Below are positions 2,343 through 59,925 of a stretch of 64,000 nt of DNA, one piece after another (position 1 is the first letter of the stretch; every line of letters starts with the position of its first letter). The position numbers were made by a program, and so were the translations under genes. This DNA comes from a virus (taxonomy: Duplodnaviria; Caudoviricetes). The stretch lies in the IMG/VR virus record IMGVR_UViG_3300025909_000005, one strand, 5' to 3'. Under the pieces are notes generated by a model. The model was not told the DNA's origin, made no database searches, and worked only from the letters and a program-made list of their open reading frames with translations.

Positions 2343-2348
2343 TAAAAT
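2343..2348 (+). promoter_or_regulatory. sigma70-type -10 box, predicted leaderless start
   Basis: TAAAAT-acgaat-ATG(2355). Confidence 0.55.
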
Positions 2349-2354
2349 ACGAAT

Positions 2355-2777
2355 ATGGCATACAATAACCCCACCCCTGTTGCAGTCGCTGTCATGTTTG
2401 TCGGCGATGCCCTTGAAGAGGCTCGTCTTCTTACTGTCTGCCGCAAACTAGCCCCTGTTGGTGGCTGGGCCCTGCCTGGTGGCTTCGTCGATGAAGGTGA
2501 AACTGCTGAGCGGGCGATCCAGCGAGAGGTTCTTGAGGAGTGCGGCATTCGCACGGATATCAGTCTCTGGGTGCCGATTCAGACGGAGATTACGCCGCGC
2601 AATCAGCTCCTTGTCTTCATGGAATACCTCGCACCTCTCGACGAGAATGTGTTGAGCAACTTCAATGAAAATGACGAGGTCTCTGCTCTCGGCACGTTCA
2701 ATGGTAGCACCACGCTATGCTTCCCACTGCATGACAAAGTGGCTCGTGCTGCTGTCAATTCTTTCCAAACCGCATGA
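2355..2777 (+). CDS. NUDIX hydrolase
   Basis: Nudix box GGFVDEGETAERAIQREVLEECG. Confidence 0.9.
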   Translation: MAYNNPTPVAVAVMFVGDALEEARLLTVCRKLAPVGGWALPGGFVDEGETAERAIQREVLEECGIRTDISLWVPIQTEITPRNQLLVFMEYLAPLDENVLSNFNENDEVSALGTFNGSTTLCFPLHDKVARAAVNSFQTA

Positions 2778-3301
2778 CCGCATCCACGTTCGGCGCCGCC
2801 TTTGACAAGCTGAGTCACGAGACTCAGCGTCAGTTCATCCACAACCTGAACATGAGGCGTGGCCACTACGCTGGCCTCATGGGCGGGTGTTCGACTCTCG
2901 AGTGGATCAGCCAAGTCAAGGCGGTCATTCTTGGCGACACGCCCGGCCCTGGACGTCCGAAAGACCCGAACTACCACCACACTCCCTTCTACAGCACGAA
3001 GAACTCCAGTCTCTGGATGAATGCCCAGCTCGTAGAAGCCGGCATTGACGAGCGTCGGCTTGCCTGGTTCAACACTACCCTCGCTGATGGCACCCTACTC
3101 GAGCAAGGGAAGGTGACGCAGTTCCTGCCGTTCAATCCGAAGATCATCGTGTTGGGCGGCAATGCCGAGAAGTGGGTGCGATGCGTCGCACCTACACCGG
3201 TCTACACGAAGGTGTTTCACCCAGCTTTTGCGAAGCGGTTCCATTCCAAGGAACCGTACGCGCTCATCAACGAACTTCTCTTTATCAAGGAACTGCAGTG
3301 A
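2774..3301 (+). CDS. uracil-DNA glycosylase superfamily protein (family-4-like, no Fe-S cysteines)
   Basis: ILGDTPG (motif A-like), AWFN, IIVLGGNA, VFHPAF (motif B-like). Confidence 0.65.
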   Translation: MTASTFGAAFDKLSHETQRQFIHNLNMRRGHYAGLMGGCSTLEWISQVKAVILGDTPGPGRPKDPNYHHTPFYSTKNSSLWMNAQLVEAGIDERRLAWFNTTLADGTLLEQGKVTQFLPFNPKIIVLGGNAEKWVRCVAPTPVYTKVFHPAFAKRFHSKEPYALINELLFIKELQ

Positions 3302-3444
3302 TTGCTCTTCTCATGTTTCTTTTCGGTCTGCTCCTCCTTGGAGTTGCCACTCGCATCGTGCCATCGAAGGAGATACTCTTCGTCGGTGGACTGCTGATCA
3401 TCCTCTCACCAGCTGTGTTGATCATCAACCTTCTTCACTCCTGA
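3298..3444 (+). CDS. small membrane protein
   Basis: GTGA overlap; 48 aa, two hydrophobic stretches. Confidence 0.6.
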   Translation: MIALLMFLFGLLLLGVATRIVPSKEILFVGGLLIILSPAVLIINLLHS

Positions 3445-3453
3445 AAGACCGTC

Positions 3454-3927
3454 ATGACTTGTAAGTGTGGGAACTACACTCGTTTCCTGAGCCTCGGCGG
3501 CAAGTGCAGTGACATGTGCTATACGAGGGTGCCTCACCTGAAGTACGAGAATGATGGCTACGCGCCGCCCATTCCAGGTCTGGGCGGCGGCGACTACATC
3601 GAACTTAAAGTCTGCCTCAACTGCGGTCTCTTGCAGGGCTTCAAGGCGCCGTTCTCCGACGAAGACCTGAAGGTCGCGCTCGACATCGAAGAGGACGAGG
3701 AAGAACCAGACGACAACCTCGTAGAGCTCATCGAGGCGATTGCAGCGATCGACATGCTCCGCTGGACTGGTCAAGATGTTGCCATGGTTATCAGGCAGGT
3801 CTACACCGATTTTCATGACAAGCGCCGCATCGACCTGCTAGAACACTTCCTTGGTGCCAACCTCTGGTACAAGCAAGAAATTCTCCAAGAGCTGAATGAT
3901 CGGCTCGACCTACAAAATGGCGAATGA
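3454..3927 (+). CDS. hypothetical protein, Cys-rich N-terminus
   Basis: CKC, CSDMC, CLNC motifs suggest Zn binding. Confidence 0.65.
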   Translation: MTCKCGNYTRFLSLGGKCSDMCYTRVPHLKYENDGYAPPIPGLGGGDYIELKVCLNCGLLQGFKAPFSDEDLKVALDIEEDEEEPDDNLVELIEAIAAIDMLRWTGQDVAMVIRQVYTDFHDKRRIDLLEHFLGANLWYKQEILQELNDRLDLQNGE

Positions 3928-3933
3928 CCCGGG

Positions 3934-3939
3934 CAAACT
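3934..3939 (+). promoter_or_regulatory. sigma70-type -10 box
   Basis: TATAAT in intergenic DNA upstream of an SD and ATG 3977. Confidence 0.5.
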
Positions 3940-3976
3940 CGGGTATAATCGACCATCAACTAAAGAAAGGCGCATC

Positions 3977-4162
3977 ATGCGTAGCGTATCACTTCTCGGC
4001 CTGCTCTGGCTGGTTCTCTGGATTGCCGGCATCATCGGCTGGGTCCTGAACATCATCGACATCTTCCACATGGCGCACCCGCTTGACAGCGGCTTCGGCA
4101 TCCTGCGGATCGTCGGCATCTTCGTCGCACCGCTCGGCTCAATCCTCGGTCTGTTCTTCTGA
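3977..4162 (+). CDS. small membrane protein
   Basis: AAAGG SD; two TM-like segments. Confidence 0.65.
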   Translation: MRSVSLLGLLWLVLWIAGIIGWVLNIIDIFHMAHPLDSGFGILRIVGIFVAPLGSILGLFF

Positions 4163-4163
4163 C

Positions 4164-4841
4164 GTGAAGTTCCCTGACGAGTTCCGGCTGGTCACACCAG
4201 CGAAGCACTACTTCGACGATCCAGCATACCCTGAAGCTGTCGAGTACGTTGCCGCGCGGAACGAACTCTTTGATCGCATGGTGAATGGCACGCTCTACGT
4301 GAAGTTCATCGCTGGTGACCGCAAGGGCTCGATCGCGCGGATGGTGCGTGACACGCGCTATGATAAAGATGGCGATGAATACGTGCAGCCACGTGCCTCA
4401 ATCAAGGCGCGGCGTCGTTACTGGAATGATCCAGATGAGTACGAAATCGACTGGTCATGGTTCAGTGGCATCTGCAAGTGGGACAAGCGCAAGAACAGCT
4501 GTCAACTCACGATGCCTGACGCAGATGCAGTCTTCCTGCCGAATTACAACGGACCGACCATCTACGAGATGTTTGACCGAAAGGCGGCAAAGGAAGAGCT
4601 GCTGAAGAACCCAGACCAGACGGACATCGATGGCAACGTGCTGGCGATCGGCGACAAGGTGCTGTACATCAACGCGCGGTACTACGCGGGCATGGAGCTC
4701 TGTCACGGTACTATCCAGGAGTTCAAGGTCACAGCAGACTCGAAGGGACACTCATTCACCACAGTCGTGAAGAATGACGAAGCTGACGAGGTGTCATCCA
4801 TCTCGTACCCGTGGCAAATGATCTACAAGAAAGCAACATGA
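4164..4841 (+). CDS. hypothetical protein
   Basis: GTG start after upstream stop (MKFPDEFR...); phage-like codon usage. Confidence 0.7.
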   Translation: MKFPDEFRLVTPAKHYFDDPAYPEAVEYVAARNELFDRMVNGTLYVKFIAGDRKGSIARMVRDTRYDKDGDEYVQPRASIKARRRYWNDPDEYEIDWSWFSGICKWDKRKNSCQLTMPDADAVFLPNYNGPTIYEMFDRKAAKEELLKNPDQTDIDGNVLAIGDKVLYINARYYAGMELCHGTIQEFKVTADSKGHSFTTVVKNDEADEVSSISYPWQMIYKKAT

Positions 4842-6040
4842 AAATCCTGATTACGGGCTTCAACAAGAACCAGTGCACGCGAAAGTTCTACCTTCGTCAG
4901 CAGCTGAAGGTCGTGCCTTCGCACTACTCGCTGTTCAACTGCCTCGTCGACATGGGTCACGAGGTCGAGCAGCGCCAGGTAACGCTCGGTGAAGACCTGA
5001 GTGGCTACGACGAGATCATCGTCTTCATCGCGGGGCCACGCCAGCTGGTTGCCACGACGGTCTACGAGGGGCTGTGGGCCATTTCGCAGAAGCCGGGCTG
5101 CATCCTCGCTTTCGACGACTGGCAGGTTCCTGACCTCTTCAAGGGTGTGGCAAAGTGCGACCAGAAGCCTGACGAGCTCTTCGCTCAGTTCATTCTCGAT
5201 GTCAACAAGAAGACCCTCGAGGATGTCAAGCCGTACGAGCAGCAGTTCATGCAGGCGATCAGCGTGATCACCGCGAAGCAGAACCGCATGCTCATCAGCG
5301 CGTTCCAAACCGGCCATGTGTCGGGCGACGTGCATGGACCTGAGCTGCTCTTCGACAAGATCACGTATCCAAGTGATCGTCTCTTCGTCTACAACCCGAA
5401 CCCGTACCACCGCAACCGCATGTGGAACGATGAGGCCCATGAAGGATCAGAAGACCCGACCTGGAAGCCATCGTCGCTGAGCTACACCGCTCGCCCACGT
5501 CCTCCGAAGGAGGAGCGCTTCAACTTCGCCAGTCTCGTGCAGTCGAAGACACAGAAGTGGCTCAAGAAGCAGGGCTACACGGGCAACCCGAAGAACGACG
5601 AGGAAGGTGTGATCCGCGGCAATGGTCGGTACCCTTCTGCAGGTCCCAACACGACACCATTCTGGCCCGTCGACCTCTACGGCTCCAAAGCAGAGACGCA
5701 GAAGCGGCTCACCGAGGACGAAATGGTTGGCGTCATCACCCGCGACTGGGGCTGCCTCATGCCTGGCTACGAACACGCTGGCTCTGGCTGGTGGCGTGCT
5801 CGGCCGCTGCAGTGTGCTGATGCTGACTCGATCCTGATCGGTGAGGATCGTGAGCTGCGCGTCTACTACGGCGACGACTACAAGTACTTCGGTCTTGTCG
5901 CAGCGGACCTGGTTGACATGTCTCCTCAAGACCTTCACGACTGCGCCATTCACCAGAAGATCCAGCTTTACAAGTACCATCCACTCGACAAACTTCGTCA
6001 GGTGAATGAGCTTCAGACGGTTCTGGACGCGCCAAAGTGA
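4838..6040 (+). CDS. GT-B glycosyltransferase resembling T4 DNA beta-glucosyltransferase
   Basis: MKILITG, KVVPSHYSLFNCLVDMGHEVE, DLSGYDEIIVF, ILAFDDWQVP and WWRARPLQCADADSILIG align by eye with the recalled T4 BGT segments MKIAIIN, KTVPSSETIYLFKVISEMGLNVD, DVNDYDRLIVV, YYLFTDIRLP and FITLRVWETMASDAVMLID. Confidence 0.65.
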   Translation: MKILITGFNKNQCTRKFYLRQQLKVVPSHYSLFNCLVDMGHEVEQRQVTLGEDLSGYDEIIVFIAGPRQLVATTVYEGLWAISQKPGCILAFDDWQVPDLFKGVAKCDQKPDELFAQFILDVNKKTLEDVKPYEQQFMQAISVITAKQNRMLISAFQTGHVSGDVHGPELLFDKITYPSDRLFVYNPNPYHRNRMWNDEAHEGSEDPTWKPSSLSYTARPRPPKEERFNFASLVQSKTQKWLKKQGYTGNPKNDEEGVIRGNGRYPSAGPNTTPFWPVDLYGSKAETQKRLTEDEMVGVITRDWGCLMPGYEHAGSGWWRARPLQCADADSILIGEDRELRVYYGDDYKYFGLVAADLVDMSPQDLHDCAIHQKIQLYKYHPLDKLRQVNELQTVLDAPK

Positions 6041-6046
6041 TACAAT
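6038..6046 (+). promoter_or_regulatory. extended -10 promoter, predicted leaderless start
   Basis: TGA-TACAAT-ggtagc-ATG(6053). Confidence 0.6.
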
Positions 6047-6052
6047 GGTAGC

Positions 6053-6424
6053 ATGATCGACCTAAACCTCTACCCTCCGAAAGAAGCCCAAGTGGGCGTC
6101 TATGATGGCCACTCCTACGGCGCCAAAGGCCTCCTCGACATTCACGTCGATGAGGACTCCAATGGTGTCTTCGAGGGCTCCCGCTTCAACGGTGAGATCA
6201 TCCACCTGAAGGATGGCGACGAGGAGGTCGGCACGTTCTGTGTCGGCTACCTGAGTGTCGGCCCTGGCACGTTCTGGGTCGAGGTGCCGGTCGAGGCATG
6301 CAGCATCTACAACGAAGAACAACATGACCCAACCTACCAAGCGAAGCTTTGGTTGGCGTCAGAAGAGGGAAAAGAATGGCTGAAACAACACCCACTACCG
6401 AGGCTTCCAGGGGATCCGAAGTAA
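6053..6424 (+). CDS. hypothetical protein
   Basis: ORF between the GT and the mutase. Confidence 0.65.
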   Translation: MIDLNLYPPKEAQVGVYDGHSYGAKGLLDIHVDEDSNGVFEGSRFNGEIIHLKDGDEEVGTFCVGYLSVGPGTFWVEVPVEACSIYNEEQHDPTYQAKLWLASEEGKEWLKQHPLPRLPGDPK

Positions 6425-7719
6425 GGAAGAAGGCCCTTGTCGTCGGCGCTGGCTTTGCTGGCGCCGTTGTCGCTAGAGAGCTCGCAGATACAGGTGACTG
6501 GGACGTACTCGTCATCGATGCACGCAATCACGTTGCGGGCAACGCCTTTGACTACGTGAACGAGCTGGGCATTCGCGTGCACAAGTACGGTCCCCATCTC
6601 TGGCATGGAAACTCGGACATCGCGCAGGAATGGGCGTCGCGTTTCACAGAGTGGGTTCCGTACAAGCACTACGTGACAGCTCAGCTGCCTGATGGCCAGC
6701 ACGTGCCGCTGCCAATCAACGCGAAGACGATCATGGAGGTCTTCGGCCAAGAGTTTCACAACTTCGCCATGTCGAAGCCTGAGTACTGGGCCTACCAAGA
6801 CGAGGACATTGCTGACGGCATCGGCTACCTTCCGCTCGCCTTCGAGGCGTTCATGGAGCAGCAGCGGGTCAAGTACGAGGCCGTGACAAACTCCCGTGAG
6901 CACGTCGAGTCATCGGTTGGCAAGCGACTGTGCGAGTTGTTCTTCGCGCCGTACACCAAGAAGATGTGGGGCATGGATCTCGCTGACCTTCCAACGTCGG
7001 TAGCGGCCCGCATCCCAACGAAGACCGACTCGGACAAGTACTACTTTCCGAAGGACAAGTACCAGTTCATTCCGAAGGACGGCTACACCGCACTGATCAC
7101 GAAGGCACTTGACCACCCGAACATCACGGTGAAGCTCTGCACGAAGCGCCAAGAGCTCATGCAGTACGCAGGAAGCTATGAGTACCCCTACGTTATTTCG
7201 ACGGGGTGGGACAACGTCAAGTTCGACGCCGTGTTCACGTCAGAGCCCATCGACACGTACTACAACTGCGACCTTGGTGAGCTGCCTTGGCGCTCCATCA
7301 AGTGCCACACGTACAACGTGCCAGTGCCGAAGCTACTCGACGCACCAGTGGTCAACTTCACGCACGACGGTCCACACACGCGTGCTACCGAGTGGAAGCA
7401 GATTCCAGGCCACGATTTTCCTGACTACGCGCGAGATGAATACAGCTCGAGCAAGTACTGGACGACCATCACTGTTGAAGAGCCGTGTGATTACCGCGAC
7501 AACAACATGGAGCGGTACTACCCAGTCAAGACGTCGCATGTCATTGACCCCAATCGTGAACTCTACAAGCAGTACCGTGACCGTGCCAAGAAGGACGGCA
7601 TTCACTTCATCGGCCGCTGTGGTCGCTACGTGTACACGGACATGATGCCCTGCATCAACTCGACCCTCGCTCAGGTCGGTCGTTTCTTGTCGGGTGATAC
7701 AATACCATCAGAGGACTGA
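6376..7719 (+). CDS. glf: UDP-galactopyranose mutase (FAD-dependent)
   Basis: VVGAGFAG FAD motif, AGNAFD, HKYGPH, LFFAPYTKKMWG, RIP, YQFIPKDGYT, WRS, TRATEWKQ, RYYP, GRCGRYVYTDM: the collinear set of Glf motifs. Confidence 0.9.
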   Translation: MAETTPTTEASRGSEVRKKALVVGAGFAGAVVARELADTGDWDVLVIDARNHVAGNAFDYVNELGIRVHKYGPHLWHGNSDIAQEWASRFTEWVPYKHYVTAQLPDGQHVPLPINAKTIMEVFGQEFHNFAMSKPEYWAYQDEDIADGIGYLPLAFEAFMEQQRVKYEAVTNSREHVESSVGKRLCELFFAPYTKKMWGMDLADLPTSVAARIPTKTDSDKYYFPKDKYQFIPKDGYTALITKALDHPNITVKLCTKRQELMQYAGSYEYPYVISTGWDNVKFDAVFTSEPIDTYYNCDLGELPWRSIKCHTYNVPVPKLLDAPVVNFTHDGPHTRATEWKQIPGHDFPDYARDEYSSSKYWTTITVEEPCDYRDNNMERYYPVKTSHVIDPNRELYKQYRDRAKKDGIHFIGRCGRYVYTDMMPCINSTLAQVGRFLSGDTIPSED

Positions 7720-7721
7720 AA

Positions 7722-8228
7722 ATGATGAATGACATTCCCGTTGGCTACGCACTCACGATCACCTCGTGGGAGAACGACGCCGACTGCTACAAGGACGTGA
7801 ACTTCTACGGCCTGGCCTACGAGGACGTGTGGTTCCTCATTGACCTTGCGAAGCTCTTCAAGTCGATGAACAACTACGCAGACCCAGGGTTCGGAGGCGG
7901 AGCTTGGCACTGGAAAAATGGCGAGAAGAACTACTTCAGCGACGTCTACGCTGCGATTGACGAGGTAGTTGAGAAGTACAAGGACATCAACGTCAGCTCA
8001 GAGCTCTACGGCCAGTGGTCGAATCTTCGTGCTGACGCTGAAATCGACCCAGAGTACGGAGACGACGGCTACAATCAAATGATTCAGGAACTCGTGAGCT
8101 ACCCTGAAGACGAGTACTACCGTGGGAATTACATTCGCGTGTTTGACAGCTTCAAGGTGCACTACTACAAGGCTGCTGTCGATGACTGCACAAGTGACTT
8201 CGAGGGCAAGCTGCCAGAGCCGGTATGA
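7722..8228 (+). CDS. hypothetical acidic protein
   Basis: GAGG SD; preceded by TGA-TACAAT (7695-7703). Confidence 0.7.
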   Translation: MMNDIPVGYALTITSWENDADCYKDVNFYGLAYEDVWFLIDLAKLFKSMNNYADPGFGGGAWHWKNGEKNYFSDVYAAIDEVVEKYKDINVSSELYGQWSNLRADAEIDPEYGDDGYNQMIQELVSYPEDEYYRGNYIRVFDSFKVHYYKAAVDDCTSDFEGKLPEPV

Positions 8229-8383
8229 GCAACCTTCTCTTCAACATCCGTTTTGGCTCGTACCACTGGCAGGTCCGCAGGGATCGACCATGGTTCAGCA
8301 TCAGCCATAATCCAGTGCATGATGAACGTGGACCTGGTTTCAAGTGGTTCATGGTCTACTGCTGGTTCGGAAAGCACGTGTGA
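8225..8383 (+). CDS. hypothetical 52-aa Trp-rich protein
   Basis: ATGA overlap at the start, GTGA overlap at the end; absent from ORF track. Confidence 0.55.
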   Translation: MSNLLFNIRFGSYHWQVRRDRPWFSISHNPVHDERGPGFKWFMVYCWFGKHV

Positions 8384-8703
8384 AGAGCGGGCCCAAGTAC
8401 ATTCCAGGGGAATGCAGGTGCAGCAACTGCTGCAACCCTGGCCCAAAATGGGAAGCAGAGACGCGTTGGGCCCGGAACAACCGCAAGAAGAGAATCCTCG
8501 GCATTGAGAAGAGGTACCGTGAACGAACAGCCTACCAACAACGAGCCTTCAGAAAAGAGTACCCTCCCCTCTTCGGAGAGAAGCGAAAGCTCCGCTCGGC
8601 CCCAAAGAAGGTCAAGAGGTTCTATCGCTGGCAGACCAGTCTCTGGCGATATCGACAGGCCTTTGCCGAGTCCAGAAGAAATCGCCTGGCGGAACAGGGT
8701 TGA
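8380..8703 (+). CDS. hypothetical basic protein
   Basis: GTG overlapping upstream TGA; CRCSNCC motif; very Arg/Lys-rich. Confidence 0.5.
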   Translation: MKSGPKYIPGECRCSNCCNPGPKWEAETRWARNNRKKRILGIEKRYRERTAYQQRAFRKEYPPLFGEKRKLRSAPKKVKRFYRWQTSLWRYRQAFAESRRNRLAEQG

Positions 8704-9004
8704 AGAGGATCGCTGGGCACTCTACCAAGAGCGGCCCTACGTTGATGTGGTAGCGCGTGCCAAGCTTCGAGTCCAGCACGAGGAGTGGCTAGGCAAGCCT
8801 GTCCCTGAGTTCACCGTCATTCACACAGAAGAATACACCGCAATCGAGAGTCACTCTCACGACGATGACCTCTGGCTTCGGCTGTCAGGAAATTTTCTGC
8901 CCGACCGCCGGCTCATGATCGCAACAGAAATCTGCGACCAGCTCAATCGCATTGAGCAACAGGACCTAGAAGCAGCCCTAATCAGGAAGAAGAATGCAAT
9001 TTGA
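8504..9004 (+). CDS. hypothetical protein, start uncertain (GTG 8747 or entry by frameshift near 8675)
   Basis: Codon usage looks gene-like only after about 8675. Confidence 0.45.
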   Translation: MRRGTVNEQPTNNEPSEKSTLPSSERSESSARPQRRSRGSIAGRPVSGDIDRPLPSPEEIAWRNRVEEDRWALYQERPYVDVVARAKLRVQHEEWLGKPVPEFTVIHTEEYTAIESHSHDDDLWLRLSGNFLPDRRLMIATEICDQLNRIEQQDLEAALIRKKNAI

Positions 9005-9722
9005 CAAACCCACTCTCATCACCCTCACAGCACCAACTTGTTCAGGCAAGTCGTTCCTGCTCGAGTACCTGACAGATCAGGTCACCCCATACCGTCGCAC
9101 CGTCGTGAAGGGGTTGTGCGAGCGAATCGTCAGCACCACAACTCGAAAGTCACGAGAAGGTGAAGAGGAAGGTAAGGACTACTACTTCATCAGCGAAGAG
9201 GAGTCGATTCGCATGGAGCAGGACGGGCTGTTCGCTGAGCTCATCACGTTCCGAGGCACCCGCTACGGCGTCACAAAGGTCGAGATGGCCAAGAAGATGG
9301 CCAGCGACCGTCCGCCAATCGTGATCCTTGAGCCGCAAGGTCTGAAGATCTACGAGAAGCTCTGTCAGGAGAATGGTTGGGGCATCTACAAGGTGTTCGT
9401 CAGCACGTCTGAGCCAGTGCGAATTCAGCGCCTGAATCACCGAACCTCTCTCGACATGCAGGACGTCATTCGTCGACGCCATGAGTTCCAAGGGGACGAG
9501 CTCTTCGAAGCGATCAAGAAGGTCATCTCAACGCACACGAACCGCATGGAGTCGATCATGGGTGAAGAGCGGCGCTGGCAGGGCATGAGCGTCTGGGATG
9601 CCATTATCACGGGTGAGGACCGCATGAAGGCGATCGCTGACCTCAAGCAGGGCATCGCATGGCGGAACCAGCGCACCAAGAATCCAACTCCTTTCAATGG
9701 GTACTTCAATGACATTGCTTGA
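8994..9722 (+). CDS. guanylate-kinase-like protein
   Basis: APTCSGKS P-loop; IVSTTTRKSREGEEEGKDYYFIS and RYGVT GMK signatures. Confidence 0.8.
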   Translation: MQFDKPTLITLTAPTCSGKSFLLEYLTDQVTPYRRTVVKGLCERIVSTTTRKSREGEEEGKDYYFISEEESIRMEQDGLFAELITFRGTRYGVTKVEMAKKMASDRPPIVILEPQGLKIYEKLCQENGWGIYKVFVSTSEPVRIQRLNHRTSLDMQDVIRRRHEFQGDELFEAIKKVISTHTNRMESIMGEERRWQGMSVWDAIITGEDRMKAIADLKQGIAWRNQRTKNPTPFNGYFNDIA

Positions 9723-10164
9723 AATTGTAGGCGTAGGCGTTAGCGACCTCGCGTGTCTTGGCTTTGGCGTCTGGGTCGGTGTCTACCTTGTAGGTCGCTC
9801 CATTCGGAAGCAGGCCGAGAAGCTGGTTCCTCCAAGCCTGATGGACAAGCTGCCGAGCATGGAGGAAGCGCAGGACCTCTTCAAGGACATCGACTTCAAT
9901 GACATCGCAAGTCGACTTCAGTCAGCACTTCAGCAGCCAACGGTTGTTCTAGGGCCGCAGGTACCAGCAGAGCACCCAGTCAGGCAGTTCGAGGGAGTGA
10001 TCGGTTCACGAGGGCCGAACATGATCGTGGTCGCACCGAATGGTGCTGAGTTCGCCATCACGGACGGCACTAAGGGCATGAAACCGGAGCAGCTCATATC
10101 GGGAACGAAGGTGGAAGCCCACGCAAGCGGGAACGTCCTCAAGTACGTCTTCCCGAAGAAGTAA
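9709..10164 (+). CDS. hypothetical protein with N-terminal TM
   Basis: Hydrophobic N-terminus; followed by terminator. Confidence 0.6.
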   Translation: MTLLEIVGVGVSDLACLGFGVWVGVYLVGRSIRKQAEKLVPPSLMDKLPSMEEAQDLFKDIDFNDIASRLQSALQQPTVVLGPQVPAEHPVRQFEGVIGSRGPNMIVVAPNGAEFAITDGTKGMKPEQLISGTKVEAHASGNVLKYVFPKK

Positions 10165-10168
10165 CAAG

Positions 10169-10195: not shown

Positions 10196-10205
10196 CCCGG
10201 GCCTG

Positions 10206-51999: not shown

Positions 52000-52407
52000 A
52001 TGAACAATACCCAACCGCACGAGGTGCTGATCGATCAGGCAAACCGTGCAGCGATTCAGATGATGAGAGGTGTCGGTGACCTGATCGAGATTGCAGGCGC
52101 CTACATGGAACAGGGGGAAGTCGTCACCGAAAGTGACGCCATCAAGCGTGAAGGTATCACGTCCGCTGTTGAAGAACTTGCCCGCCTGACAAAGCTCCTC
52201 GGAGCTGAAGTCGTGCGTTGGAAGAAGGAAGAGCCACGGATTATCAGCCGCTCCGGTATTGAGGGCGATATCCTGAATGAGCTCATGGCGAACGTGGAAT
52301 CATCCCTGATGTTCTTCATCATGGAGAACCAGGACCTCGGAAACTTCAATCGTGATGAGATGAAGGCCGCGTACTCCGACCTCGTAAGGTGTAACCAACT
52401 CCTCTGA
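52000..52407 (+). CDS. hypothetical late protein
   Basis: TAAATA 51973-78, AAGGAG SD. Confidence 0.75.
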   Translation: MNNTQPHEVLIDQANRAAIQMMRGVGDLIEIAGAYMEQGEVVTESDAIKREGITSAVEELARLTKLLGAEVVRWKKEEPRIISRSGIEGDILNELMANVESSLMFFIMENQDLGNFNRDEMKAAYSDLVRCNQLL

Positions 52408-52444
52408 GTGTTTACGCTGCGAGGAATCAGGAGTATAATGAACC

Positions 52445-52582
52445 ATGTTCAGAAAAACCTTCGCCATCACCTTCTTCGTGCCATGCCTGCTCTGCCGCTG
52501 CGTCGTTGACGCGGGTAGGGCGATGAAGGAGGCCGCTCGAATGGAACTTCGAGGGCTCAAGCGTATCCTTCGTGGATTCTGA
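52445..52582 (+). CDS. 45-aa protein, predicted leaderless
   Basis: TATAAT(52434-39)-gaacc-ATG; absent from ORF track. Confidence 0.5.
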   Translation: MFRKTFAITFFVPCLLCRCVVDAGRAMKEAARMELRGLKRILRGF

Positions 52583-52775
52583 GAAGAAGGCTTCGGCCCT
52601 CGAGTCAGTCGTAACGAACGCGATCGGGTTCGCGTACACCGTTGCGCTCTCCATGATCTTCTCAGATCAGGACTTCTGGAAGAGCGCAGAGTTCAGCTCG
52701 TTTATTCTCGTGCTGAACATCATTCGTTCGTTCGTTGTGAGCGTGATCTTCAAGAAGATCCGCGGTAAGGATTAG
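52572..52775 (+). CDS. small membrane protein
   Basis: Two TM-like segments. Confidence 0.55.
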   Translation: MDSEKKASALESVVTNAIGFAYTVALSMIFSDQDFWKSAEFSSFILVLNIIRSFVVSVIFKKIRGKD

Positions 52776-53287
52776 TCGGCTAGGTAGCCGCCCTTGGCGC
52801 TGAACTCACCCATCTTTTCGTCGCCGTCGAAGGCGGCCCAAGTTTCGTCGCCATCTTCCTTGTTGCCAGCAATCTTCTTGACCTGGAAACCGGCTGCCTT
52901 GGCCTGCGTTGTCCACGTCTGCTGATCACCTGGCTCGAATGTTTGGCGGTCCTCACGCATCGTGCGGTGCTGGGCGTAGTCGTCGCGCTCCTTACCGTTG
53001 AGGCTTGGATAGCCACCCTGTGGGTAACCCTTGTCGTTGCCCCTCTCTGTGCGTTCCTTGGCCTTCAACCATTCTTCGTCGCGCTTCTTCTTGAGAGCAT
53101 TGCGACGATCTTCATCCGCCTTCTTCTTGTCAGCAAGCTTCTGCTGAGCAAGGGTGAGCTTCTCCTTCTTGCCTTCCTTGTCTTCGGACCTGCCGAAGAT
53201 CTTGCCGAAGACCTCGTCGATCTTTTCTGCCGAAGCGTCGACGGTGTTGTCGATGAAGGCGTTGAACTGCTTGAAGGAGACGGTCAT
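52772..53287 (-). CDS. late highly charged protein, candidate internal head protein
   Basis: MTVSFKQF N-terminus; TATAAATA at 53320-27 on minus strand. Confidence 0.75.
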   Translation of the reverse strand: MTVSFKQFNAFIDNTVDASAEKIDEVFGKIFGRSEDKEGKKEKLTLAQQKLADKKKADEDRRNALKKKRDEEWLKAKERTERGNDKGYPQGGYPSLNGKERDDYAQHRTMREDRQTFEPGDQQTWTTQAKAAGFQVKKIAGNKEDGDETWAAFDGDEKMGEFSAKGGYLAD

Positions 53288-53319
53288 TGGGATCCCAGTG
53301 TGTGGATTCTAGATGCGGG

Positions 53320-53327
53320 TATTTATA
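53320..53327 (-). promoter_or_regulatory. T4-consensus late promoter TATAAATA
   Basis: Exact T4 late -10 consensus, 32 nt before ATG. Confidence 0.7.
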
Positions 53328-53403
53328 TCGGTCCTGAACAATCAAGTGACCCGAGTGATCAAAATGTTACAATCAGCCATCAAGACGAACAACCGGAGGA
53401 TAA

Positions 53404-54060
53404 ATGGCACGTAAATCAAAGGACCTGGCAATCGAGCTCTTGAGCCACTCGATGCTTTCAAGTGGACTCTTCAGCGAGGGCGCGGTCAAGCTGGTTCAAG
53501 ATTGCAAGGTGACGAAGGACGAAATCGACTCGGCTCTTCGAACCGCCTGGTCAGACCTACTTCCTGACCCCCATCCTGTAAAGGACCGCTACGTCATCGG
53601 CTTCATCTTCGACGAGGAACGCAAGCACGTTCTCCTGGTCTGGAAGAACCGTCCGGCATGGCAGAATGGGAAGCTCAACGCCCCAGGTGGCAAGGTCGAG
53701 GAAAACGAATCGGCACTTCTCGCAGTTCAACGTGAGATCGCGGAAGAGACAGGCATCAAGACCGACTTCCACCACTGGCGCTACGTTGGTCGCCGCTTCC
53801 GTGCAGCAATGTCTCCGAAGCAGGACTTCTCGTACAGCCTCCAGATGTTCGTTACCGAGGTTCCGCTCGTGGACATGAAGGCAGCACAAGAGTGGCAGAC
53901 CGATGAGGAGGTCGTGGCCCTGCCACTGAACATGGAGATCATCAAGCGCCGCGGCGTACCGTCCCTGGTCTGGGCCACAGACGCAGCGCTCGCGGCTCTC
54001 GACACCGGCCTGATCATCGAGGTTGAGGATCCGGCAATCTTCCCAGAGGATGACCAGTGA
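53404..54060 (+). CDS. NUDIX hydrolase (MutT-like)
   Basis: NAPGGKVEENESALLAVQREIAEETG; GGAGG SD; TACAAT upstream. Confidence 0.88.
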   Translation: MARKSKDLAIELLSHSMLSSGLFSEGAVKLVQDCKVTKDEIDSALRTAWSDLLPDPHPVKDRYVIGFIFDEERKHVLLVWKNRPAWQNGKLNAPGGKVEENESALLAVQREIAEETGIKTDFHHWRYVGRRFRAAMSPKQDFSYSLQMFVTEVPLVDMKAAQEWQTDEEVVALPLNMEIIKRRGVPSLVWATDAALAALDTGLIIEVEDPAIFPEDDQ

Positions 54061-54410
54061 AAGAACGAACCCTCATCAAGGTCGTCGCCACCATCATCAC
54101 CGGCATCGGGAATGGCAGGATGAAGACCGAGCTGGGGCGTGGCATTGTACCGCTCAAGCGCGGTGTTTCTCTACTCGACTTCATCTCCGCCTTCTTGATC
54201 GAACGTGACGTCTCGGCTACCCTTGTGCAACGCGAGGAGAACCTGTGGGCCACCGCGCCCATCATGTCACTGAACACCGAGCCAAGGCAGGTGATGACCT
54301 TCCACTTCATGACCTTTCCAGTGTCAGAGCTCGGCTACTATGCCAAGGACCTGACCAAGGCGGAGCTTGAACGTGACATGAAGCAACTCAAGAGGTTGAT
54401 CAATGGCTGA
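54057..54410 (+). CDS. hypothetical protein
   Basis: GTGA overlap. Confidence 0.6.
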   Translation: MKERTLIKVVATIITGIGNGRMKTELGRGIVPLKRGVSLLDFISAFLIERDVSATLVQREENLWATAPIMSLNTEPRQVMTFHFMTFPVSELGYYAKDLTKAELERDMKQLKRLING

Positions 54411-55011
54411 CGTAATCGGGCTGAGCGGCCCACAAGGTGGCGGTAAGACCACGCTTCTCAACGGCCTTGCAGGCGAGAACATTATCGTGGATGACTTCAA
54501 GGTATCCCGTGCGGTTCAGGCTCAGCTCGGCTGGTCAACTCTCGAGAACGTGCTGGAAGATCCAGTCACGATGAAGCAGTTCCAAACTGCCATTCTCGAG
54601 CAGAAGATCGCGCGCGAGAAAGAGAACAAGCTGCGTGAAGATGTCAAGTACATCTTGACAGAGCGAACGTTTGCTGACATCGCCGCCTACACACAGCTCT
54701 GGTGCTGGGAGCTCGCACATCAGAACAAGTGGTCGATCGCGGATGCCGTTGACTTCTCGCTTGGCTTCATTCAAGAATGTGCACGCGCTCAACACATCTA
54801 CTCAGGCAACATCTACCTTCCATCCATGCCGCACGTTCAGTGGCAGGCCGACCCGCACCGCGCCAAGCAGGAGCACACGCAGTTCATTACGGATGAGCTC
54901 GAGGGCTTCTTTGCGCGCAAGCACCCAGAGAACGTTCCTGTCTTCAGGATCACTGAGGGCTCCGTGCAGGGTAGAATTGATCAAGTGAACAAATGGCTGT
55001 CGACCCTCTAA
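54403..55011 (+). CDS. P-loop kinase-like protein (NadR/AAA_28-like)
   Basis: GPQGGGKTT; ILTERTFADIAAY. Confidence 0.7.
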   Translation: MADVIGLSGPQGGGKTTLLNGLAGENIIVDDFKVSRAVQAQLGWSTLENVLEDPVTMKQFQTAILEQKIAREKENKLREDVKYILTERTFADIAAYTQLWCWELAHQNKWSIADAVDFSLGFIQECARAQHIYSGNIYLPSMPHVQWQADPHRAKQEHTQFITDELEGFFARKHPENVPVFRITEGSVQGRIDQVNKWLSTL

Positions 55012-55196
55012 CGGCATACGCGGAAGGGATCAAGGCAGGCCACAAGTCGTTTCGCGAAGGTGAGCATGTTGAGAACCCCTATGAACGCCACAGTCCTGAA
55101 TGGCACGCCTTTGAAGAGGGAGCCTGCCATGGCTGGGGTGACGCGTACTATTACGAGTACCAGATCGACGATGATGAACAACCTTGGGGTGGATGA
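54993..55196 (+). CDS. hypothetical protein
   Basis: AYAEG...NPY...EW..FEEG pattern common in phage small proteins. Confidence 0.6.
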   Translation: MAVDPLTAYAEGIKAGHKSFREGEHVENPYERHSPEWHAFEEGACHGWGDAYYYEYQIDDDEQPWGG

Positions 55197-55561
55197 TGTG
55201 GCCAAGGCCTGAAGACTACACACGGTTCAAGAACTTGGAACCCATTGAAGATCTCCCTGGCTGCTATCAGCTGAAGCCTGAAGGTGAGCGAACTGGCGAG
55301 CCCATGTCTCCTGAGCGGCGTGAGAAGATCAATGCAGCCATTGCCAAGTTTCAGACTGACACGAACAAACTGTTAGAAGAGCTTCGTCCCAAGTGGGCAG
55401 AAGAAGCCCGCATGTTGGCCGAGCACCGCGCGCGTATCGCTGAAGGGCGACGTAGAGTCGAGGAAAGAATCGAACGCGAGCTTGCAGAAGAACGAGAACA
55501 GGCCAGGTGGGAGAAGCTTTCTCTCTGGCAGAAATTCAAGGAATGGTGGAAATCCGCATGA
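55193..55561 (+). CDS. hypothetical coiled-coil protein
   Basis: ATGA overlap. Confidence 0.65.
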   Translation: MMWPRPEDYTRFKNLEPIEDLPGCYQLKPEGERTGEPMSPERREKINAAIAKFQTDTNKLLEELRPKWAEEARMLAEHRARIAEGRRRVEERIERELAEEREQARWEKLSLWQKFKEWWKSA

Positions 55562-56169
55562 CAAGAAAGACAACATACACGCGAGCCCACCCGGGCAAGT
55601 TCGGGCTGGCGATCGACTGGGAGACCAGCGGTTCCAACTTCGGCGGGGACTCCTCGAAGGACTACCAGGGGCTGGCCTTCGGCGCGATCATCTTCGACAC
55701 CACGACCTTCGAACCGGTTGCTGAGCTCTACCGCGAGCTGCACTTCGATGACAAGAAGTACAAGTGGTCAGACGAAGCCGAGAAGATCCATGGCCTATCG
55801 CGTGAGCACCTGAAGGAACATGGTGTTCCTCGTGAGGAGGCGCTCGTTGACCTCCTTGAGCTCGTGATGCAGTACATCGGCACCGAGTCCAAGATCATGT
55901 TCCTTGGCCACAACGTGGACTTTGACATCGACTTCACGGTTCAACTGGCTAACGATCATGGCATCGAGCTGCAGATCCACCACGTCAAGCTCGAGACGTC
56001 AGGCACGGCCTTCATTCTGGCTGGTGTCTATCGTTCGAACGACGTGTTTGAGGCATTCCTCGGTGAGGTACGTGAAGGCAAGCACAACGCTCTTCAAGAT
56101 GCCCACATGGCCCTAGAGGTCGTGCGCAACATGAAGGCGATCTTCGCGGTCGGTTTGGAGAACGGCTGA
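55558..56169 (+). CDS. DEDDh 3'-5' exonuclease (DnaQ-like)
   Basis: IDWETSG, GHNVDFD, HNALQDA. Confidence 0.85.
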   Translation: MTRKTTYTRAHPGKFGLAIDWETSGSNFGGDSSKDYQGLAFGAIIFDTTTFEPVAELYRELHFDDKKYKWSDEAEKIHGLSREHLKEHGVPREEALVDLLELVMQYIGTESKIMFLGHNVDFDIDFTVQLANDHGIELQIHHVKLETSGTAFILAGVYRSNDVFEAFLGEVREGKHNALQDAHMALEVVRNMKAIFAVGLENG

Positions 56170-56255
56170 TGCTTCACGTAACTCTGCTCCTCATTTTCGT
56201 TTTCCTTGCTGGCGTGATTGTTGGCATGGGTATTCTTCAGATCCTCGACAAATGA
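56169..56255 (+). CDS. 28-aa TM peptide
   Basis: TGATG and ATGA coupling on both sides. Confidence 0.5.
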   Translation: MLHVTLLLIFVFLAGVIVGMGILQILDK

Positions 56256-56473
56256 ACGCGCTGAACAAACTCCTCACTACGATCAGTGAGGCGCCCGAGT
56301 CCCAGATCCACCCTGAAATCTGCAAGAAGATCAAGGGCCTGATTGGTTGCCCACCTGAAATCGTTGCCTTCAACCTGAAGGAGATTCGCGACCAGTGCGT
56401 TGCTGAGGCTCTCGCTTCAGGCTTCGCGCTGAACGTCATCAGCGAGACCATCAACATCGCAGAGACCCAGTGA
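56252..56473 (+). CDS. hypothetical protein
   Basis: ATGA overlap. Confidence 0.65.
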   Translation: MNALNKLLTTISEAPESQIHPEICKKIKGLIGCPPEIVAFNLKEIRDQCVAEALASGFALNVISETINIAETQ

Positions 56474-56562
56474 TCTACGACATCATCATTCTCTGCTTCG
56501 AGTCCTTCATGGCCGGTCTTCTCGTGGGGATCGGCGTCACCTACTGGCTTCTACGACCATGA
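56470..56562 (+). CDS. 30-aa TM peptide
   Basis: GTGA and ATGA coupling on both sides. Confidence 0.5.
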   Translation: MIYDIIILCFESFMAGLLVGIGVTYWLLRP

Positions 56563-57086
56563 AACTCATCACAGCACCTGAAGACATCCACAAGTACCGA
56601 GTTACACGCAGTGGGTGGGACGTTCAGCCACGGCCAACTCTCTTTCTTGGCGGCTCTATTGAGCAGGGCAAGGCAGAGTTCTGGCAGGACGCCGTCGCTG
56701 AATCGTTGAAGGACGAGAGCATTCTCCTCTTCAACCCACGTCGGCAGGAATGGGATGAACTTGCAGACGAGAAGTTCATTCGTGCTCAGATCCGTTGGGA
56801 ACTAGCTGCTCTTGAAGAGAGCGACGCAGTCCTGATCTACCTTCAGCCTGGCACCCTCTCGCCGATTAGTATGCTCGAGTTTGGCTTGTATGCCCGGGCT
56901 CCACGACGGAAGCTCGTAGTCGTCTGCCCTCCAGGTTTCTGGCGCAGAACGAACATCGAGGAGACTGCAGCTCGCTTCGGCATTCCACTCTACGACACGA
57001 TCGATGAAGGTGTGAAGAAGGCGGCAGAGCTGGCGAAGATCAACTACATCCATGACAACGACTGGGCTGGCCCGCTCTATGACTGA
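56559..57086 (+). CDS. nucleoside 2-deoxyribosyltransferase-like protein
   Basis: LFLGGSI, WQ, FNPRR, QIRWEL, SPISMLEFGL. Confidence 0.78.
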   Translation: MKLITAPEDIHKYRVTRSGWDVQPRPTLFLGGSIEQGKAEFWQDAVAESLKDESILLFNPRRQEWDELADEKFIRAQIRWELAALEESDAVLIYLQPGTLSPISMLEFGLYARAPRRKLVVVCPPGFWRRTNIEETAARFGIPLYDTIDEGVKKAAELAKINYIHDNDWAGPLYD

Positions 57087-57267
57087 CGACACCCCAACTG
57101 ACACCTACATCTACGATGACCTCGAGGTGAAGACGACGGGCCGTACCGCGTCGAAGGACCTGCCTGGTGGAAAGAAGGCGGTGATGCACGAAATCACCCC
57201 GCTTGACCAAGATCAAGGCACATGGAAGAAGTGGGTCAACCTGGCTGCGCTGTTCCGAATTCAGTGA
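57079..57267 (+). CDS. hypothetical protein
   Basis: ATG overlapping upstream end. Confidence 0.6.
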   Translation: MTDDTPTDTYIYDDLEVKTTGRTASKDLPGGKKAVMHEITPLDQDQGTWKKWVNLAALFRIQ

Positions 57268-57301
57268 ACACGGCCATGGTAGAGTGGCTTATAATGGGGG
57301 T

Positions 57302-57538
57302 ATGACACGTTATACCAACCTCACAGCCGTCCAGTTGTTCATGTTGGCGATCCTCATGTCGCTTCTAACCGCAGTCTTGGTGTCCATAAATACCTGGTAC
57401 ATGGACTACCGAATGCTGCCCATGGTCTACAAGGACGCCGCTGGTACCTGCCTCAAGGTCGAAAACCTCGAGAACGGCCAGGCCTTCAACTGCAATGACG
57501 TCAACGTAACCCTGAGGCGGTACAAAACCGCCAAGTGA
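57302..57538 (+). CDS. membrane-anchored small protein, predicted leaderless
   Basis: GTGAACACG-N17-TATAAT(57290-95)-gggggt-ATG. Confidence 0.65.
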   Translation: MTRYTNLTAVQLFMLAILMSLLTAVLVSINTWYMDYRMLPMVYKDAAGTCLKVENLENGQAFNCNDVNVTLRRYKTAK

Positions 57539-58668
57539 AAAAGTACCTTCGACTTACCTGCACCATCTGCAAGCGCAGCATCGACAAGCTCGTCGATCTG
57601 ACGCACTACGCGCCTGACGAATGCACGATCACCCTCAACTGCGAGGGTCGCCTGCTTCCGATCGAGTACCGCTCGAACGCGGAGATTGCCGTCGCGCCAG
57701 CCCTCGGTGTCACCGACTGGCGTCCACGCGGCACGAAGGTCTTCAACTCACCGACGGACACGAATCCAAACCTGATCGCACTGGAGACGGGAACTCTCAA
57801 GCAGCTTACGCTGGGCGTAGCTCTTGCCTCTGATCCTGGTGAAGGTGCCACACACAACGTGACCTTCTCAGTTCGCGCTGACACACCGAAGGCCTATCGT
57901 CAGTATGTCTACCGCATGGACCAGTCGTTCGACTCAGTCGCTGGCGTTGAGAGCGGGCTGGAGAAGAAGTCACTGCGGTTCACCGCCTACGGCGCCAACC
58001 CAGACCTGGTCGAGGTCTACGTCAACGGCGTGAAGCGCGCTGAAGGCACAGGACCCGACGACTACCAGGTGTACAACGGTTCGAACGGCATCCTGCCAAA
58101 CACAATCAAGTTCAACTCCTCGATCGTTCAGGCAGGCATCACACAGGTCGACGTCATCGTCTCAAAGGAGCAGGCGTCGAACGACGTTACGCTCACGTTC
58201 ACTCGCAACGCGCTCGATGAATCGCGTGTAGGAACCGGCGCCTACGAGAACGTCTCGTACGTCGATCGCTTCGATGAAACGCTGGCAGCTCCGCACCAGC
58301 GCCGCTACTACCTCTTCCACCTTGACCTAGACACGGCAACCCAACTGTCGCTGAACTCCATTCTCGTTTCACCGTCGACGAACACCGATGCGATCTTCCT
58401 GCTGGCACGCTCACCGTACAGCACGCTCGATCGTTACACGGACCTCGTCGTTGAGCTGTCAGGCATGGATGAGGAACGCGACTACATCAAGTTCTATGCC
58501 GTGAACTCCGTCACCACTGCTCGCGTCACACAAACCGCGATCTCAACGATCTACCCACCGCTGACACTCGGCAAGTTCGTTGTCGAGAAGACGATCAAGA
58601 CCCAACTCCCAGGAGTTACGGAGCAGATCACCATCGACGGTGCGGTCATCACAGGACCAGACGCATGA
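57535..58668 (+). CDS. putative virion structural protein
   Basis: TAAATA at 57387-92; N-terminal CxxC...C..C; VEVYVNGV beta-sandwich-like segment. Confidence 0.6.
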   Translation: MKKYLRLTCTICKRSIDKLVDLTHYAPDECTITLNCEGRLLPIEYRSNAEIAVAPALGVTDWRPRGTKVFNSPTDTNPNLIALETGTLKQLTLGVALASDPGEGATHNVTFSVRADTPKAYRQYVYRMDQSFDSVAGVESGLEKKSLRFTAYGANPDLVEVYVNGVKRAEGTGPDDYQVYNGSNGILPNTIKFNSSIVQAGITQVDVIVSKEQASNDVTLTFTRNALDESRVGTGAYENVSYVDRFDETLAAPHQRRYYLFHLDLDTATQLSLNSILVSPSTNTDAIFLLARSPYSTLDRYTDLVVELSGMDEERDYIKFYAVNSVTTARVTQTAISTIYPPLTLGKFVVEKTIKTQLPGVTEQITIDGAVITGPDA

Positions 58669-59120
58669 TCAATCCCCCAACCGACTGCTTCTTTGTCATT
58701 CAGCTTCACGGTGAAGCTGCTGAGTACGTGGCTAGCACGCTCTCGGAAAGCACGCTCTCTGACATTCGCGAAGCCGTCATGATCTCTGAGGACTTCTCCA
58801 ACGACATCGCAGCGGAGGTCAGCATGGACAACGCCGTGCTGAATGTCAAGAACTCCCTGATGGGTGAAGTTGAGGAGCTGATCACGATGAATCCTCTTTA
58901 CATTCCCTCTGGTCCCGACGCCATTCGTGACGTGCTTGACGGCGACTTCAAGTCGGACACGTTGAAGTTCACCGGCATGGATGGCAACCCCTTCACGCTC
59001 AAGACGACCAGCCTGACGTCGAACGACCAGGGCGTGCTTGAGGCCAAGGTTGCCTGCAAGCCGTTCGAGCTGCCGTCCTACGAGGACATCATTGCTGGTC
59101 AAACGAAGGGGCTCAACTGA
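58665..59120 (+). CDS. hypothetical protein
   Basis: ATGA overlap. Confidence 0.7.
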   Translation: MINPPTDCFFVIQLHGEAAEYVASTLSESTLSDIREAVMISEDFSNDIAAEVSMDNAVLNVKNSLMGEVEELITMNPLYIPSGPDAIRDVLDGDFKSDTLKFTGMDGNPFTLKTTSLTSNDQGVLEAKVACKPFELPSYEDIIAGQTKGLN

Positions 59121-59512
59121 TGGACATCACGCAGTTCGACTTCGCGTACAACGCGACGATCAAGATCAGTGAGGTTGGTGCTTCAAAGGCGCTGGCCCTG
59201 TTCCCTGGCGTGACGGATGTTTCGCTGAACTCTCGCACCTTCTCCACCTACGTCGAGTGCGCCAACAGCGTCAAGCACCTGATGGAAGACGTGGCACGAG
59301 CCGCAAGCAATGAAACAATCGAGTTCGCTGTCACCAGCGAGATTAACCCAGCCCACACAGGTGTTGAGACCCGCTCAAAGGACTGGGCTGACGATGAGGT
59401 CGCGCGCCTCTGGCTCTTTGACAAGAGCTTCGAAGGAAAGCTGGCAATTCACGCGGTTGGTCAAGCTCGCATCTTCGCGATGGACAAGATCGACAGCGTA
59501 ACGATCAACTGA
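59120..59512 (+). CDS. hypothetical protein
   Basis: TGATG coupling. Confidence 0.7.
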   Translation: MDITQFDFAYNATIKISEVGASKALALFPGVTDVSLNSRTFSTYVECANSVKHLMEDVARAASNETIEFAVTSEINPAHTGVETRSKDWADDEVARLWLFDKSFEGKLAIHAVGQARIFAMDKIDSVTIN

Positions 59513-59701
59513 TCATTCTTGCGAGTTGTAGATCTCGTCAGAGACCGCCTCTTCACGGGCCCAGGCGATGAGCTCATCGAGCTGCTTCCGTCGCTCCAGG
59601 CTGTCTCCACAGATTGCGTCGTAAAGCTCTTCCATCTGCTTGACTTCGGCTGCCTTCGTCTTCCAGAAAGCGAGCGCGTGGACAGGGTGCATGCCTTGCA
59701 T
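59513..59701 (-). CDS. hypothetical protein
   Basis: MQGMHPVH..., TGATG-coupled to the upstream minus-strand gene. Confidence 0.6.
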   Translation of the reverse strand: MQGMHPVHALAFWKTKAAEVKQMEELYDAICGDSLERRKQLDELIAWAREEAVSDEIYNSQE

Positions 59702-59850
59702 CAGAAACTCCAAAGAACCGAAGTATGTTCCAGACCGCCGCACACGATGTAGTGTTGCGCGACCTGAGTGTGCGAGATCCGATCCCACCAGGCTTCGCGC
59801 CAGGCTTCTTCACAGGAGATTCGCGCTTGCTGGATGAGGGTTTCGTTCAT
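59701..59850 (-). CDS. 49-aa protein, predicted leaderless
   Basis: Minus strand TATAAT(59861-56)-gaatc-ATG; MNETLIQQAR...; absent from ORF track. Confidence 0.55.
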   Translation of the reverse strand: MNETLIQQARISCEEAWREAWWDRISHTQVAQHYIVCGGLEHTSVLWSF

Positions 59851-59925
59851 GATTCATTATACACACTTTCCACAGGTTTGTGTCATGGTACAATGTAACA
59901 ATCAACCAGCCAACAAGAGGACAAA

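Follow-up and report, generated by a model that had tools for sequence, protein, structure and literature searches.

We analysed a 64-kb window of phage DNA (the whole 64,000-nucleotide stretch of IMG/VR record IMGVR_UViG_3300025909_000005, Caudoviricetes) and found that TA(T/C/A)AAT (TAHAAT) hexamers followed by 5-6 nt and an ATG occur 13 times in it, against ~0.5 expected. Twelve of these ATGs open plausible genes, including those for both subunits of a type II topoisomerase. Judged from sequence, leaderless expression, in which the mRNA would begin at the start codon and lack a Shine-Dalgarno (SD) sequence, is very probably the best explanation of the sites. A preliminary description of this DNA had listed 11 such genes. 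At all 11 the hexamer, the spacing and the ATG are as it had described them, with 50726 and 52445 on the plus strand and 59850 on the minus strand, but two more sites had been missed, at 20198 (Tpt1/KptA) and 43373 (a 5-codon open reading frame, ORF). Its assignment of both topoisomerase subunits was borne out by Pfam.

Spacing between −10 boxes and start codons

TAHAAT-N6-ATG was found 10 times in the window versus 0.28 expected from shuffled sequences, and TAHAAT-N5-ATG three times versus 0.25; the observed N5 or N6 counts were reached in none of 100 shuffles. An ATG thus stands at N5-6 behind 13 of the 34 TAHAAT hexamers. When the spacing was scanned from 0 to 30 nt, ATG occurred three times at N5 and 10 times at N6, 0-3 times at the other distances and never at N7, and over all TAHAAT hexamers the start codons other than ATG were nearly missing at N5-6 (GTG once, TTG never). 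The −10-to-start distance is bimodal. It measures 5-6 nt for 12 genes and the mini-ORF and 18-72 nt for 11 promoters, and none falls at 7-17 nt. The leaderless type makes up about half (12/23) of the sigma70-type, that is TATAAT-type, promoters of the window.

The bases around the ATG follow the usual preference of bacterial RNA polymerase for a pyrimidine at −1 and a purine at +1: without exception, the 13 sites carry a pyrimidine at −1 and A at +1 (p = 2e-4). In six leadered promoters of this family, ATC takes the place of ATG at N5-6, and a C/A-rich leader and an SD come after it, which supports the A at N5-6 as the start point of the whole promoter family. The −10 hexamers of the 13 sites are all TATAAT, TACAAT or TAAAAT, and of all promoters in the window the two closest to the sigma70 consensus (12418, 11/12; 37167, 12/12; both with an extended TG) sit 6 nt before an ATG. 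The −35 element is canonical in three of the 13 sites (12418, 37167 and 52411); four more have a GTGTAC-like hexamer or an extended TG, and the remainder have a poor −35 or a 19-nt spacer. Beyond the two best matches, promoters carry a GTGTAC-like hexamer 17-18 nt upstream of the −10 box, and in some the −10 box stands alone.

Genes behind the leaderless-type promoters

The gene for the topoisomerase II large subunit (672 aa; 12418-14472, plus strand) is preceded by TTTACA, 18 nt, TGaTATAAT and N6 before ATG 12454, and that for the gp52-like medium subunit (461 aa; 15756-17177, plus strand) by GTGTAC, 18 nt, TATAAT (15780-15785) and N6 before ATG 15792. Just upstream of the large-subunit gene lies a gene for a 74-aa protein (12128-12387, plus strand) with ATGTAC as −35, 17 nt, TGaTAAAAT (−10 at 12151-12156) and N6 before ATG 12163. 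An intrinsic terminator with a 7-bp G+C stem and a T run (12103-12125, plus strand; −16.3 kcal/mol, z = −3.8) abuts this promoter, so supply of RNA by read-through is unlikely there.

Two further annotated genes encode a NUDIX hydrolase (140 aa; 2343-2777, plus strand; TAAAAT 2343-2348, N6, ATG 2355) and the RNA 2'-phosphotransferase Tpt1/KptA (173 aa; 20186-20719, plus strand; TACAAT, N6, ATG 20198). The promoter context of the NUDIX gene is the weakest of all the sites, with a poor −35. A second promoter, GTGTAC-N18-TACAAT at 2337-2366, overlaps its −10 box, and RNA from it would start ~18 nt inside the NUDIX ORF. The 138-aa protein at ATG 37202 (37167-37618, plus strand; TTGACA, 17 nt, TGaTATAAT, N6) is encoded by the first gene of an operon that contains a T4 Rnl1-type RNA ligase, and the 123-aa protein at ATG 6053 (6041-6424, plus strand; TGaTACAAT with the −10 at 6041-6046, N6) belongs to no known family; its gene has an in-frame stop 15 nt upstream. 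Predicted membrane proteins follow at three sites, all on the plus strand: 105 aa at 36841-37170 (TATAAT, N6, ATG 36853), 61 aa at 50715-50911 (TATAAT, N5, ATG 50726) and 78 aa at 57290-57538 (TATAAT, N6, ATG 57302), the last being followed by a gene that begins at an overlapping GTGA. The promoter of the 36853 gene is invariant in close relatives, and the −35 of the 36841 promoter reads CTGCAC in the window and CTGTAC in close relatives; because the 36853-37202 region of these relatives is ~98% identical DNA, it is uninformative on selection. A near-palindrome, CGGCGAC..TCGCCG (36834-36852), flanks this TATAAT and could act as an operator or, in read-through RNA, form a hairpin.

The remaining sites precede short ORFs. 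A 45-aa ORF with a low coding score (52411-52582, plus strand) follows TTTACG, 17 nt, TATAAT and N5 at ATG 52445, and a 49-aa ORF on the minus strand (59701-59861; TATAAT 59861-59856, N5, ATG 59850) is coupled by a TGATG overlap to a second minus-strand gene (~62 aa). At 59848-59926, two promoters stand back to back ~30 bp apart, the minus-strand TATAAT of this leaderless-type two-gene operon and a plus-strand TACAAT at 59889 that serves an SD-led gene, in a geometry reminiscent of a phage regulatory switch region. The thirteenth site is a 5-codon ORF (MSAAW; 43361-43390, plus strand; TATAAT, N6, ATG 43373) lying in the leader of gene 43418, which is SD-led. It would represent a leaderless mini-ORF ahead of that gene or else a side effect of an AT start consensus.

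The ATGs indeed appear to be gene starts: all but the one at 43373, with its five codons, open ORFs (12 of 13; 45-672 aa), and 9 of the 12 ORFs lack any earlier start, with an in-frame stop lying 6-30 nt upstream. Phage homologs of the topoisomerase large subunit align from residue 1-3, and the Pfam matches begin at residue 8 of the NUDIX protein, residue 4 of Tpt1 and residue 37 of the topoisomerase medium subunit. The NUDIX and Tpt1 proteins have the same N-terminus as their orthologs in related contigs (G003 and G002, respectively), and the 138-aa protein has two full-length homologs of 138 aa. Since domains or homologs reach the N-terminus in the NUDIX hydrolase, both topoisomerase subunits and Tpt1, true starts further downstream, an objection that the preliminary description had itself raised, are excluded for these four. 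The genes at 52445 (45 aa) and 59850 are the least certain of the 12.

Translation features of the predicted leaderless genes

We measured anti-SD pairing as the best duplex over the upstream 18 nt. The median duplex energy of the 12 genes was −2.3 kcal/mol, equal to the background at random positions (−2.4); that of the other genes was −4.0 (longest start) to −5.55 kcal/mol (best start; p = 0.013 versus the 12). An SD motif was absent in 11 of the 12. The earlier statement that these genes have no recognisable SD therefore stands for the duplex energies and for those 11, but not for 52445, which has an AGGAG upstream, and at 57302 a GGGGG abuts the ATG. The contrast that had been drawn with SD-led genes elsewhere is present in the energies but is weaker than claimed, as a strong SD is found in only 29-40% of the other window genes. 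Because SD use is moderate overall, we regard this contrast as supporting rather than decisive.

ATG starts all 12 genes, as against 69 of the 86 others (Fisher p = 0.09). Over their first 36 nt, the predicted transcripts also fold weakly, with a median of −1.75 kcal/mol versus −3.9 at other gene starts (p = 0.004) and −6.4 in random segments (p = 3e-6). Leaderless translation needs a 5'-terminal AUG and little structure, and AUG is strongly preferred in E. coli and Caulobacter; additional initiator tRNA promotes this mode of translation (PMC9031893). The ATG-only starts and the weak 5' structure of the predicted transcripts fit these known requirements.

Conservation in related phages

We compared the window with IMG/VR contigs bearing related topoisomerase genes. 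A TATAAT-like box lies N5-7 before the first ATG of the topoisomerase medium-subunit gene in 13 lineages (the window, L004, L005, L006, L007, L009, L032, L035, L036, L041, L042, L043 and L050), whose proteins are 42-70% identical to the window's medium subunit and whose local G+C is 0.38-0.60; at this gene the −10 box is kept while the flanking DNA diverges. Seven other lineages have the same gene behind a TATAAT box and a ~20-40-nt leader with an SD. The large-subunit gene is likewise of the leaderless type in L005, L006, L114 and L116 and leadered in L004, L115 and L117. In L009 (3956-4000), a +1 ATG of the large-subunit gene is in frame with an SD-led ATG 24 nt downstream; a longer product by leaderless initiation and a product from the SD-led start are each conceivable. 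The Tpt1 ortholog in G002 has TGcTAAAAT-N6-ATG, and in G003 the orthologous NUDIX gene lies behind a leader with AGGAG. One and the same gene is thus found in leaderless and SD-led states among relatives.

Across whole contigs, the pattern and a reversed-pattern control were counted as 8/0, 9/1, 12/0 and 15/1 in four related contigs, and in two sampled contigs 7/12 and 7/8 of the matches open ORFs of at least 65 aa. The pattern is weaker or absent in lower-G+C related contigs, and the window, with 13 sites per 64 kb, is denser than any relative examined. G+C is higher where the topoisomerase gene is of the leaderless type (0.52 versus 0.39, p = 0.009, uncorrected for phylogeny). This association among related phages is a weak hint of a host rich in leaderless transcripts. 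The cultured distant relatives XacN1, RsoM2USA and X1 lack the arrangement at their topoisomerase large-subunit gene; across XacN1 there is a modest enrichment of the pattern (23 versus 8), to part of which the terminal repeat contributes. Orthologs of the 37202 and 6053 proteins were not found in ten related contigs.

Proposed mechanism and alternative explanations

From these observations we infer the exact RNA start and the mode of ribosome loading as follows. Host RNA polymerase with a sigma70-type factor would begin transcription at the ATG, on its A or no more than 1-2 nt away, and an RNA that starts at the ATG would lack both a 5' leader and an SD. The first cistron would be read by leaderless initiation, in which a ribosome, mainly a 70S, binds the 5'-terminal AUG, and the downstream cistrons, which mostly overlap the preceding stop, would be translated by coupling. 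Initiation by direct 70S binding is typically insensitive to kasugamycin and counteracted by IF3. The same promoter family would drive the SD-led genes, with RNA starting from the same position with AUC and then a C/A-rich leader of 12-66 nt. As both classes share a start position, a gene could switch state by small changes. The earlier proposal that a subset of genes uses SD-independent leaderless initiation is in line with the spacing, the −1 pyrimidine and +1 purine, the exclusive use of ATG, the background-level SD pairing, the unstructured 5' ends, the terminator upstream of 12163 and the conservation in relatives.

Several points nevertheless weigh against this explanation. At 2343, 20186 and 36841 the promoter lacks an extended TG and its −35 is poor or atypical, and at 50715, 57290 and 59861 a long 19-nt spacer separates −35 and −10. 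The start on the A of the ATG, in this phage and in its relatives, is predicted from the DNA sequence, and the host is assumed to be able to translate leaderless mRNA. One RNA library, which shares sequence with the topoisomerase region, and three DNA runs, compared with 2000-21999, gave a few contigs of 151-289 nt at a depth of 2-3, too sparse for transcript starts, and no RNA library matching 50400-60300 turned up; a 151-nt metatranscriptome contig at 2297-2447 crosses the proposed start at 2355, pointing to some read-through RNA, or contaminating DNA, at that site. The AGGAG at 52445 lies 11 nt upstream of the ATG and could be used by a read-through transcript. Moreover, the ORFs at 52445, 59850 and 50726 are very small with low coding scores, and AT stands at N5-6 (+1/+2) in 21 of the 34 hexamers, which looks like a feature of the promoter family. 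With AT as the default at +1/+2, an ATG is just one base away, as the 5-codon ORF at 43373 illustrates.

Some of these points would suit an alternative in which the hexamers are unused or weak promoters and read-through transcripts are translated by coupling or by SD-independent internal initiation, with the A/T-rich box ahead of the start codon acting as an unstructured, S1-friendly element. The window does consist largely of one long co-directional gene array in which SD-poor initiation is common, as the low share of strong SDs indicates, and both the contig that spans 2355 and the AGGAG of 52445 agree with it. However, such an enhancer needs no exact N5-6 spacing, −1 pyrimidine, extended TG or −35 at 17-18 nt. 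In addition, a terminator precedes the 12163 promoter, the leaders behind six hexamers of this family begin at the same position, and the box is conserved where its flanks have diverged. We therefore consider read-through an unlikely account of the sites.

It is also conceivable that the promoters are real but that some of the +1 ATGs are not start codons, the true start lying downstream or no gene being present. The prevalence of AT at N5-6, with G a single base step away, speaks for this, as do 43373, which opens five codons before an SD-led gene, and the low coding scores of 52445 and 59850. Yet G follows AT in 13 of the 21 hexamers versus 28% expected (p = 0.001), and all but one of the 13 ATGs open ORFs. 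Domains or orthologs reach the N-terminus in five annotated proteins, and the ORF at 59850 is TGATG-coupled to a gene downstream. This makes the second alternative quite improbable. A chance coincidence of start codons with A/T-rich hexamers, for which nothing but the small size of a few ORFs can be cited, is refuted by the shuffles and by the recurrence of the arrangement at orthologous genes in many phages, and we give it practically no credence. Leaderless expression thus stays the explanation that we favour.

Other promoters and gene content of the window

Besides the leaderless-type sites, GTGTAC 17-18 nt (or TGTACA 16-17 nt) before TATAAT marks a promoter class that departs consistently from TTGACA (10206, 15756, 43338, 44572, 46743, 48607 and 49719). 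The leadered promoters share a C/A-rich initial transcribed sequence starting with ATCAAC or ATCATCAAC (3950-3976, 44600-44671, 48635-48667, 53374-53403 and 59895-59925), which may be an unstructured translation-enhancing leader. The window further contains 14 TAAATA boxes (plus strand: 11261, 17627, 24383, 25777, 35797, 39438, 40393, 41673, 51973, 57387 and 61031; minus strand: 53325, 40356 and 15737), most of them 20-45 nt before SD-led genes, which resemble a T4-type late promoter class. None of these 14 boxes has the leaderless layout, apart from a 4-codon ORF at 40393; the leaderless-type genes sit behind TATAAT-type promoters and not behind this late type.

The window has a G+C of 55-59% and carries almost all of its genes on the plus strand, and no tRNA genes were found within its 64 kb. 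Near-identical DNA was found solely in rhizosphere and soil metagenomes, no near DNA match to the window was found among sequenced phages, and the longest contig encoding one of its proteins has 376,619 bp. Giant Xanthomonas, Ralstonia and Stenotrophomonas phages have topoisomerase II large subunits 44-47% identical to that of the window. Pfam matches among the window proteins comprise two NUDIX hydrolases, both topoisomerase II subunits, Tpt1/KptA, a T4 Rnl1-type RNA ligase, thymidylate synthase, UDP-galactopyranose mutase, a SprT-like protein and a family B DNA polymerase. The UDP-galactopyranose mutase is too weak a pointer to name a host, its homologs being only ~40% identical and mostly alphaproteobacterial. 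Tpt1/KptA (20198-20719), the T4 Rnl1-type RNA ligase and the two NUDIX hydrolases form an RNA-repair/turnover gene cluster, whose further coordinates are 37615-38805, 2355-2777, 53404-54060 and 39475-40122. The 215-aa gene at 39475 is ClpP-like, as judged from a precomputed Pfam match of its counterpart in the syntenic close relative L118, which is ~98% identical to the window across 426 aligned bases.

Significance and comparison with known systems

These results provide a concrete, testable set of predicted leaderless transcripts from an uncultured giant soil phage. With both states present at the topoisomerase genes, the clade offers a natural series on what decides the mode of initiation. 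Annotators of these genomes should accept start codons that lack an SD when a −10 box lies immediately upstream. It is rather doubtful that leaderless initiation is, beyond a compact layout, a deliberately kept translational class in this giant-phage clade that serves translation when SD initiation is impaired. If it were, the replication and RNA-repair operons would be entered by a 5'-terminal AUG and so remain translatable when host defence, stress or the phage's own shutoff impairs SD initiation, and switching between leaderless and SD-led forms would track host translation biology.

A similar −10-adjacent leaderless pattern is known from Actinobacteria. In Deinococcus-Thermus, a −10 motif 6-7 bp before an ORF marks leaderless genes, and its promoter function has been shown experimentally (PMC12340547). 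The window resembles that system in its TANNNT-type −10 box 6-7 bp before the start, the lack of an SD and the separate class of GGAG-led genes (PMC12340547). In scale, the arrangement covers about half of the window's sigma70-type promoters (12/23) and a third of all genes in Deinococcus-Thermus (PMC12340547). Unlike that system, the one described here belongs to a phage and has a near-consensus TATAAT, often with a −35 and an extended TG, and its host need not be from those phyla.

Among phages, phiYS40, which Sevostyanova et al. are said to have described in 2007 (J Mol Biol 366:420), and P23-45, the subject of a later transcription study, both large lytic phages of Thermus thermophilus, reportedly make many leaderless transcripts, in the middle and late classes, with host RNA polymerase and extended −10 promoters. 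A passage in one paper cites the phiYS40 study for TGnTA 'promoters of leaderless bacteriophage genes' (PMC4842269). The window differs from the pattern reported for these Thermus phages in that its late-type TAAATA promoters are SD-leadered and its leaderless-type genes lie behind TATAAT; the sequences are also unrelated. The cI mRNA of lambda made from PRM starts on the A of its AUG and needs the 5'-terminal AUG and 70S loading (PMC9031893). The 59850/59889 back-to-back promoters, with a small leaderless-type gene on the minority strand, are similar to this case, but lambda has a single such regulatory gene and the window has a dozen genes in 64 kb, replication enzymes included.

In differential RNA sequencing of phiKZ no leaderless transcript was found, and the 5' untranslated regions of AR9 are 26-491 nt long. 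Both are, like the window phage, giant phages with many promoters; they use their own RNA polymerases, in contrast to the sigma70-like and T4-late-like promoters of the window. We found no account in the literature of leaderless expression in the present phage group. With the predicted genes of the window, large-scale leaderless expression would extend beyond Thermus phages and actinobacteriophages, with none in phiKZ and AR9, for which 5' ends have been mapped. Taken together, the leaderless mode itself is already known from these systems, and what the window and its relatives add, with good support, is its heavy use and the switching of state among related phages.

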